NCBI RefSeq assembly: GCF_054482595.1
Contig: NZ_CM137008.1
Length of the DNA: 64,000 nt
Reading direction: 5' to 3' (one strand)
Shown: positions 22,440 to 22,735 of the stretch, one piece after another
How positions within the stretch are numbered: position 1 is the first letter of the stretch
How the letters are laid out: every line of letters starts with the position of its first letter
Notes under the pieces: generated by a model
Seen by the model: the letters and a program-made list of their open reading frames with translations, nothing else
Databases searched by the model: none
Told to the model about the DNA's origin: nothing
Translations under genes and position numbers: made by a program

Positions 22440-22735
22440 GGCAAGGCTGTTATTGCCGGATGCGGCGTGAACGCCTTATCCGACCTACACAGCACTGAAC
22501 TCGTAGGCCTGATAAGACGCGCAAGCGTCGCATCAGGCAATGCTGTTATTGTCGGATGCGGCGTGAACGCCTTATCCGACCTACACAGCACTGAACTCGT
22601 AGGCCTGATAAGACGCCAAGCGTCGCATCAGGCAATGCTGTTATTGTCGGATGCGGCGTGAGCGCCTTATCCGACCTACACACAGCACTGAACTCGTAGG
22701 CCTGATAAGACACAACAGCGTCGCATCAGGCGCTG
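22440..22735. repeat. BIME/REP cluster: three tandem copies of a roughly 97-bp unit containing REP palindromes
   Basis: Unit ...gccggatgcggcgtgaacgccttatccgacctacacagcactgaactcgtaggcctgataagacgc...gcgtcgcatcaggc... repeated three times between pepA and holC. Confidence 0.7.

Follow-up and report, generated by a model that had tools for sequence, protein, structure and literature searches.

BIME-2 elements combine z2 with y REPs, occur in multiple tandem copies with a short S linker and s/l/r flanks, and vary between strains in copy number per locus; BIME-1 elements combine z1 with y in a single copy and have a long linker that binds IHF (PMC3333891). The REP325 array lends stability to the upstream yjdM mRNA and, in part via Rho, attenuates transcription running on into yjdN; REP effects are context-dependent, and two to four hairpins are insufficient for Rho-dependent termination (bioRxiv 10.64898/2026.03.23.713779). 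On DNA, Topo-seq showed the BIME-2 class to be enriched for gyrase cleavage, mainly at y REPs, with a transcription-independent signal. The same dataset lists the K-12 element 'holC-pepA' as an 83-bp BIME-2 with two gyrase cleavage sites in the Cfx, one in the RifCfx, none in the Micro and two in the Oxo experiment (Sutormin et al. 2018, PMC6379681, table DS3), mapped in vivo on the one-unit K-12 allele and not on a three-unit array.

Here we analysed the same site in a 64-kb stretch of E. coli DNA (the window), which is 100% identical at this locus to E. coli XH990 (NZ_CP019359.1). The array is a BIME-2 of three tandem units, each pairing a y REP with an inverted z2 REP. Its flanks, first y REP, 14-nt linker and last z2 REP (z2c) are identical in sequence to those of K-12, whose single unit is y1, the 14-nt linker and z2c in a gap of 159 nt, whereas the window holds three units in a gap of 352 nt. 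REP325 likewise alternates y and z2 in tandem between two co-directional genes, yjdM and yjdN, but has six units, other linkers and other flanking genes. BIME-1 elements are also inverted REP pairs in intergenic DNA; they differ by their single copy, z1 REP and long L linker with an IHF site, against the z2 REPs, 12–16 nt linkers and repeated unit found here. This kind of element is already known and the K-12 locus already catalogued; nothing here is new in kind, and the original prediction had reason to call the feature ordinary, its K-12 orthologue being present as a BIME-2 in the Topo-seq supplementary data.

Tandem Repeats Finder reported one array at 22437-22731 (period 96, 3.1 copies, 95% matches, 2% indels, score 519), and a repeat search found 87-nt copies beginning at 22434, 22530 and 22625, spaced by 96 and 95 nt. 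The array is thereby confirmed as real and far above chance. The original prediction of three tandem copies at 22440-22735 agrees with the 3.1 copies and is at most 5 nt off in its coordinates; its 97-bp unit has to be replaced by complete units of 96, 95 and 98 nt (Table 1). The left flank, directly after the pepA stop codon, is the extra 0.1 copy and would supply homology for misalignment. A mechanical ORF list included four ORFs of 51–64 aa inside the array, on both strands (22415-22796). These are spurious by-products of the repeat, and annotation might mistake them for genes.

Table 1. Features of the pepA-holC interval and its flanking genes (window coordinates)
Feature	Position	Strand	Characteristics
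pepA (leucyl aminopeptidase)	20920-22431	+	Stop TAA 22429-22431; NCBIfam NF002072, 1093 bits (cut-off 826)
Left flank	22432-22454		TTGCGTCAGGCAAGGCTGTTATT; partial z2 head (cf. CGCATCAGGCA at unit ends) and copy of head-to-head linker
Unit 1	22443-22538		
y REP 1	22455-22488	+	GCCGGATGCGGCGTGAACGCCTTATCCGACCTAC; scores y 30, z1 14, z2 16; DNA hairpin −7.3 kcal/mol
Tail-to-tail linker 1	22489-22502		ACAGCACTGAACTC; 14 nt
z2 REP a	22503-22538	-	Scores z2 34, y 17; hairpin −12.9 kcal/mol, z = −4.8; IS621 target ATCAGGCCTAC at 22503-22513
Unit 2	22539-22633		
Head-to-head linker 1	22539-22550		AATGCTGTTATT; 12 nt
y REP 2	22551-22584	+	GTCGG head pairs with CCGAC; compensated T-A stem pair
Tail-to-tail linker 2	22585-22598		14 nt
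z2 REP b	22599-22633	-	35 nt; loop shortened by one base; IS621 target at 22599-22609
Unit 3	22634-22731		
Head-to-head linker 2	22634-22645		12 nt
y REP 3	22646-22679	+	GAGC loop
Tail-to-tail linker 3	22680-22695		ACACAGCACTGAACTC; 16 nt
z2 REP c	22696-22731	-	Inner stem degenerate; IS621 target at 22696-22706
Right tail	22732-22755		Partial REP head CCTGATGCG at 22745-22753
Conserved pre-holC leader	22756-22783 / 22754-22783	+	TTTAAATCCACCACAAGAAGCCCCATAT / ATTTAAATCCACCACAAGAAGCCCCATAT; right edge of variable zone
holC (DNA polymerase III chi)	22784-23227	+	NCBIfam 339 bits (cut-off 281)
valS	23227-26082	+	3' of holC; above NCBIfam curated cut-off

The six palindromes of the array are 34–36 nt long and each ends in the CCTAC foot, in keeping with REPs as imperfect palindromes of 30–40 nt with a GTAG/CTAC foot. 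Global alignment to the consensus sequences of the y, z1 and z2 types (PMC11208160) separated them: plus-strand copies scored 26–30 for y and at most 16 for the other types, with 14–16 for z2, and minus-strand copies scored 30–34 for z2, against 14–18 for y and 15–18 for z1. Over the array, z1 scores were 11–18. The array is thus an alternation of inverted y (+) and z2 (−) REPs, which supports the BIME/REP identity given in the original prediction, with short linkers of 14–16 nt tail to tail and 12 nt head to head. It is wholly extragenic, between the pepA stop (22431) and the holC start (22784). In the orientation convention of Ton-Hoang, y REP 1, running from its head GCCGGATG to the CCTAC foot, is an 'iREP'.

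With DNA parameters, each of the six REPs forms a hairpin that contains an internal mismatch. One stem pair differs between the y copies: y2 and y3 have GTCGG...CCGAC where the consensus has GCCGG...CCGGC, a compensated change, and y1 is half-changed, with a C·A mismatch. The partial REP head of the right tail pairs with 22722-22730 in a 9-bp stem of −9.8 kcal/mol that has no T-run after it. Folded as RNA, the entire gap reaches −163.7 kcal/mol on the plus strand, compared with about −113 in shuffles (z = −8.8), and −171.3 kcal/mol on the minus strand, compared with about −124; z is about −8 to −9 across the strands.

A pattern scan of the 64-kb window found 14 REP-like palindromes, six of them in this array. 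The others comprise three single y/z2 pairs, one tail-to-tail and two head-to-head (46450-46533, 49706-49789 and 55946-56030), and two solitary REPs (18331-18366 and 36534-36567). No tandem repetition was seen in the REP elements of the 64-kb window outside the pepA-holC array.

Regularly spaced palindromic repeats of 34–36 nt could suggest a small CRISPR-like array, or an element working like one. This reading has next to no probability: the would-be spacers are identical at 59/60 and 61/62 positions and each contains the other REP type, the repeats fit the consensus of dispersed REPs, of which the 64-kb window has 14, and the neighbours are pepA, holC, valS and lptF, with no cas gene. CRISPR spacers are unique, those here are 95–99% identical, and we rejected a CRISPR array. 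The earlier warning that automated tools might confuse the two carries little weight given spacers this alike.

GC-rich hairpins beginning 23 nt past the stop codon could also be read as a reiterated intrinsic (Rho-independent) terminator of pepA. We consider this highly improbable. None of the hairpins is followed by a T-run, REPs in the literature generally lack a U-tract, and a promoter/terminator scan of 22000-23200 returned 0 terminator-like sites, compared with a shuffle mean of 1.2. The same scan of 22000-23200 found no promoter-like site in the pepA-holC gap. On these two negative results, we dropped the readings as a classical terminator and as a small RNA gene with its own promoter.

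The small RNA reading came from Rfam, whose only family in the region is naRNA4 (RF02564), matched on the minus strand at 22506-22581 and 22602-22676 with 85.9 and 76.6 bits, above the gathering score of 59.5; the plus strand came nearly to the threshold (57 bits). Taken at face value, these two matches would mean that the array encodes discrete minus-strand small RNAs of the naRNA4 family that condense the nucleoid with HU. The model also matches the window BIMEs at 49709-49786 and 55949-56027. Since a single z2-y pair of REP325 underlies it and it matches three loci of the window, it recognises BIME-2 units generally and not a specific gene. A minus-strand transcript would moreover be antisense to pepA-holC-valS, in a gap with no promoter-like site, and deletion or overexpression of REP325/naRNA4 leaves nucleoid volume unchanged, according to a study with Sankar Adhya among its authors (bioRxiv 10.64898/2026.03.23.713779). 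We therefore hold discrete naRNA4-type RNAs from this array to be extremely improbable. The appropriate annotation for these ~290 bases is a repeat region (BIME-2, 3 units), and not ORFs, a small RNA gene or a CRISPR array.

The identity of the neighbouring genes is secure. The pepA and holC ORFs both exceed the NCBIfam curated cut-offs, which bears out the earlier placing of the array between them, and so does lptF, which lies upstream on the minus strand. The genes from pepA to holC-valS are all on the plus strand. Other RNA-related features were recorded in the window. Ysr276, an Rfam family of antisense sRNAs from Yersinia, scored 181.5 bits at 21478-21672 (−), on the strand antisense to the pepA coding sequence; the score probably reflects coding-sequence conservation. 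A tRNA-Leu(CAA) gene lies at 15379-15463 (−), and a magnesium riboswitch (RF01056) at 39417-39532 (−) with 125.8 bits.

Immediately upstream of holC, the ~32 nt before the ATG show 60–90% column conservation over 55 Enterobacteriaceae loci from many genera and are common to all E. coli alleles, and the sequence upstream of them varies across the same 55 loci. This stretch may serve as leader/RBS of holC or as part of a promoter.

What the array does can be approached through the described systems. Because it lies in the pepA 3'UTR, 23 nt past the stop, with holC-valS downstream on the same strand and without a T-run, a dual role like that of REP325 appears most likely. By analogy with other REP arrays, transcription of pepA would yield six 3'UTR hairpins that block 3'-to-5' exonucleases and, without any classical terminator, partly attenuate read-through into holC-valS. 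The three y REPs, read against the K-12 cleavage data, may offer up to three gyrase sites. The array is likely to serve as a gyrase site on DNA and, by analogy, as a hairpin stabiliser/attenuator in the pepA 3'UTR. A further REP effect near stop codons, that of Liang, Rudd and Deutscher, reportedly needs a REP no further than ~15 nt from the stop codon. Here 23 nt separate the TAA from the first full hairpin, and this effect is therefore not invoked.

We then compared the site across E. coli. A 761-nt locus query matched 5,425 of 5,426 complete genomes, and the BIME allele, defined as one place covering at least 80% of the query, was present in 4,008 of the 5,426. Because BLAST matches from a single unit extend over every unit of the query, unit numbers were read from the spans of two evenly spaced samples taken down the rankings, 39 chromosomes and a further 60 from a flank-only query (99 in total). 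Three units were the commonest state (46/99), followed by two units in 17 genomes (16, plus one with an 11-nt deletion) and one unit in 11, most of them derived from K-12 (MG1655, DH1 and XL1-Blue among them); 24 genomes had a non-BIME element, and in one a three-unit array was interrupted by an IS. No allele of four or more units occurred among the 99 sampled genomes. Outside the samples, E105 (NZ_CP071375.1) has four units, with units 2 and 3 identical, which points to a recent duplication. Four units were also found in SCPM-O-B-8794, a genome labelled E. coli whose best match among the complete genomes compared is ~93%. The original prediction of copy-number variation was thus borne out on comparison with other E. 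coli genomes, where 1, 2, 3 or 4 units occur at the site, as expected of BIME-2. The corresponding intergenic lengths are 159 (K-12), 257, 352 and 449 nt, and the non-BIME allele measures 121–133 nt.

Identity of at least 99% to the window over the 761-nt query was restricted to 17 records. The common three-unit haplotype, found in BL21(DE3), O55:H7 CB9615 and PI7, shares units 1 and 3 with the window but has a middle unit with its own y loop GCATGAAC, linker ACAGCACCGAACTC and z2 loop GCTGCCGC, whereas the window's middle unit approximates a copy of unit 1. All sampled K-12 derivatives had one unit, and all sampled O157 strains three. Close relatives thus share their unit state, and the site appears to mark lineages rather than to be hypermutable.

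Unit-by-unit comparison indicated how these states may have arisen. The two-unit allele of QDFD216 corresponds to window unit 1 followed by unit 3. In window unit 2, the GTCGG head is that of unit 3, whereas loop, linker and z2 are those of unit 1 less one base. This unit would be the exact product expected of a y3/y1 unequal crossover or slippage in a two-unit array. The middle units of three-unit alleles fall into at least three different haplotypes, the third of which, with z2c duplicated, is that of ST131 strains. In WP5-S18, z2c replaces z2a. Gains, losses and conversions at this site appear to have been repeated. Given this chimeric make-up of the units, we infer that copy number changes through homology, either by homologous recombination between misaligned units or by slippage from unit to unit during replication.

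Copy number could instead be altered by TnpA-REP/RAYT cutting and rejoining iREP and linker sites. TnpA(REP) was shown in vitro to cut at CT dinucleotides within iREPs and linkers and to recombine BIME oligonucleotides into longer products (PMC3333891). The new units at this locus, however, are clean in-register chimeras of their neighbours, as homologous misalignment predicts: the unit-3 head on the unit-1 body in the window, y1 with z2c in K-12, and the two identical units of E105. We regard the transposase as an unlikely author of these alleles, and retain homology-driven change as the preferred explanation.

A query made from the alternative allele was covered to at least 80% in 1,405 of the 5,426 complete E. 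coli genomes (25.9%), which have no BIME between pepA and holC. Since 26% of E. coli genomes lack a BIME at the site, its role there must be dispensable and not essential. The alternative element is a nested palindrome of ~105 nt, CCCTCACCC..CCCTCTCCCTAAGGGAGAGGG..GGGTGAGG, unrelated to BIME (L003 503-635; L004 503-623). The median genome has pieces related to it at 6 places, and the element may resemble boxC. The first bases after the stop codon in the alternative allele (GTTTG) are like those of Citrobacter and Kluyvera, unlike those of the BIME allele.

Outgroups were collected with a degenerate pattern of the pepA C-terminus, which yielded 60 Enterobacteriaceae loci. E. albertii has three units at the same place and Escherichia sp. 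MOD1-EC7003 one; in Citrobacter, Kluyvera, Leclercia and Silvania the gap mostly holds either one pair of REPs or a solitary REP, belonging to types particular to them. The shortest pepA-holC gaps among the outgroup loci are 67–68 nt. In Salmonella enterica subsp. arizonae (L032), the gap contains an ERIC-like element (…AATCCCCAGGAGC…GACTGGGGTG…), so different repeat families have colonised the site in different lineages. On sequence comparison, small palindromic repeats appear to have landed in the pepA-holC gap repeatedly and since long ago, with the conserved holC leader as the right boundary of the zone.

The array is itself a target for a mobile element. The sequence ATCAGGCCTAC is a natural 11-nt target of IS621 (PMC11208160), and three exact copies of it lie on the minus strand of the array, one per z2 REP (Table 1). 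In GPEC403-625, one of the sampled strains, a gene for the IS621 transposase, a bridge-RNA recombinase of the IS110 family, lies inside the orthologous z2c of an otherwise three-unit array. The insert spans ~1,280 nt (L008 4020-5299) at a position orthologous to window ~22699, and its junctions read CTCGTAG/ATACTG... and ...ATACAAG/GCCTGAT (slash at the junction), with AG, the CT core on the other strand, on both sides. We conclude that z2 REPs are natural landing sites for IS621.

Taken as a whole, a BIME-2 array with the proposed 3'UTR role, homology-driven change of copy number and landing sites for IS621 is very probably the best explanation of this locus. It illustrates known REP behaviour in one place: copy number that tracks lineage, chimeric units, gyrase sites in K-12 and one strain with IS621. 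A bolder idea, to which we give a low probability, is that the natural allelic series, from zero (the unrelated palindrome) through one to four units, tunes the pepA:holC-valS expression ratio or local gyrase loading stepwise. If that were true, the locus would be a ready-made test of REP copy number as a quantitative 'dial', with K-12 (one unit) and BL21(DE3) (three units) as comparators.
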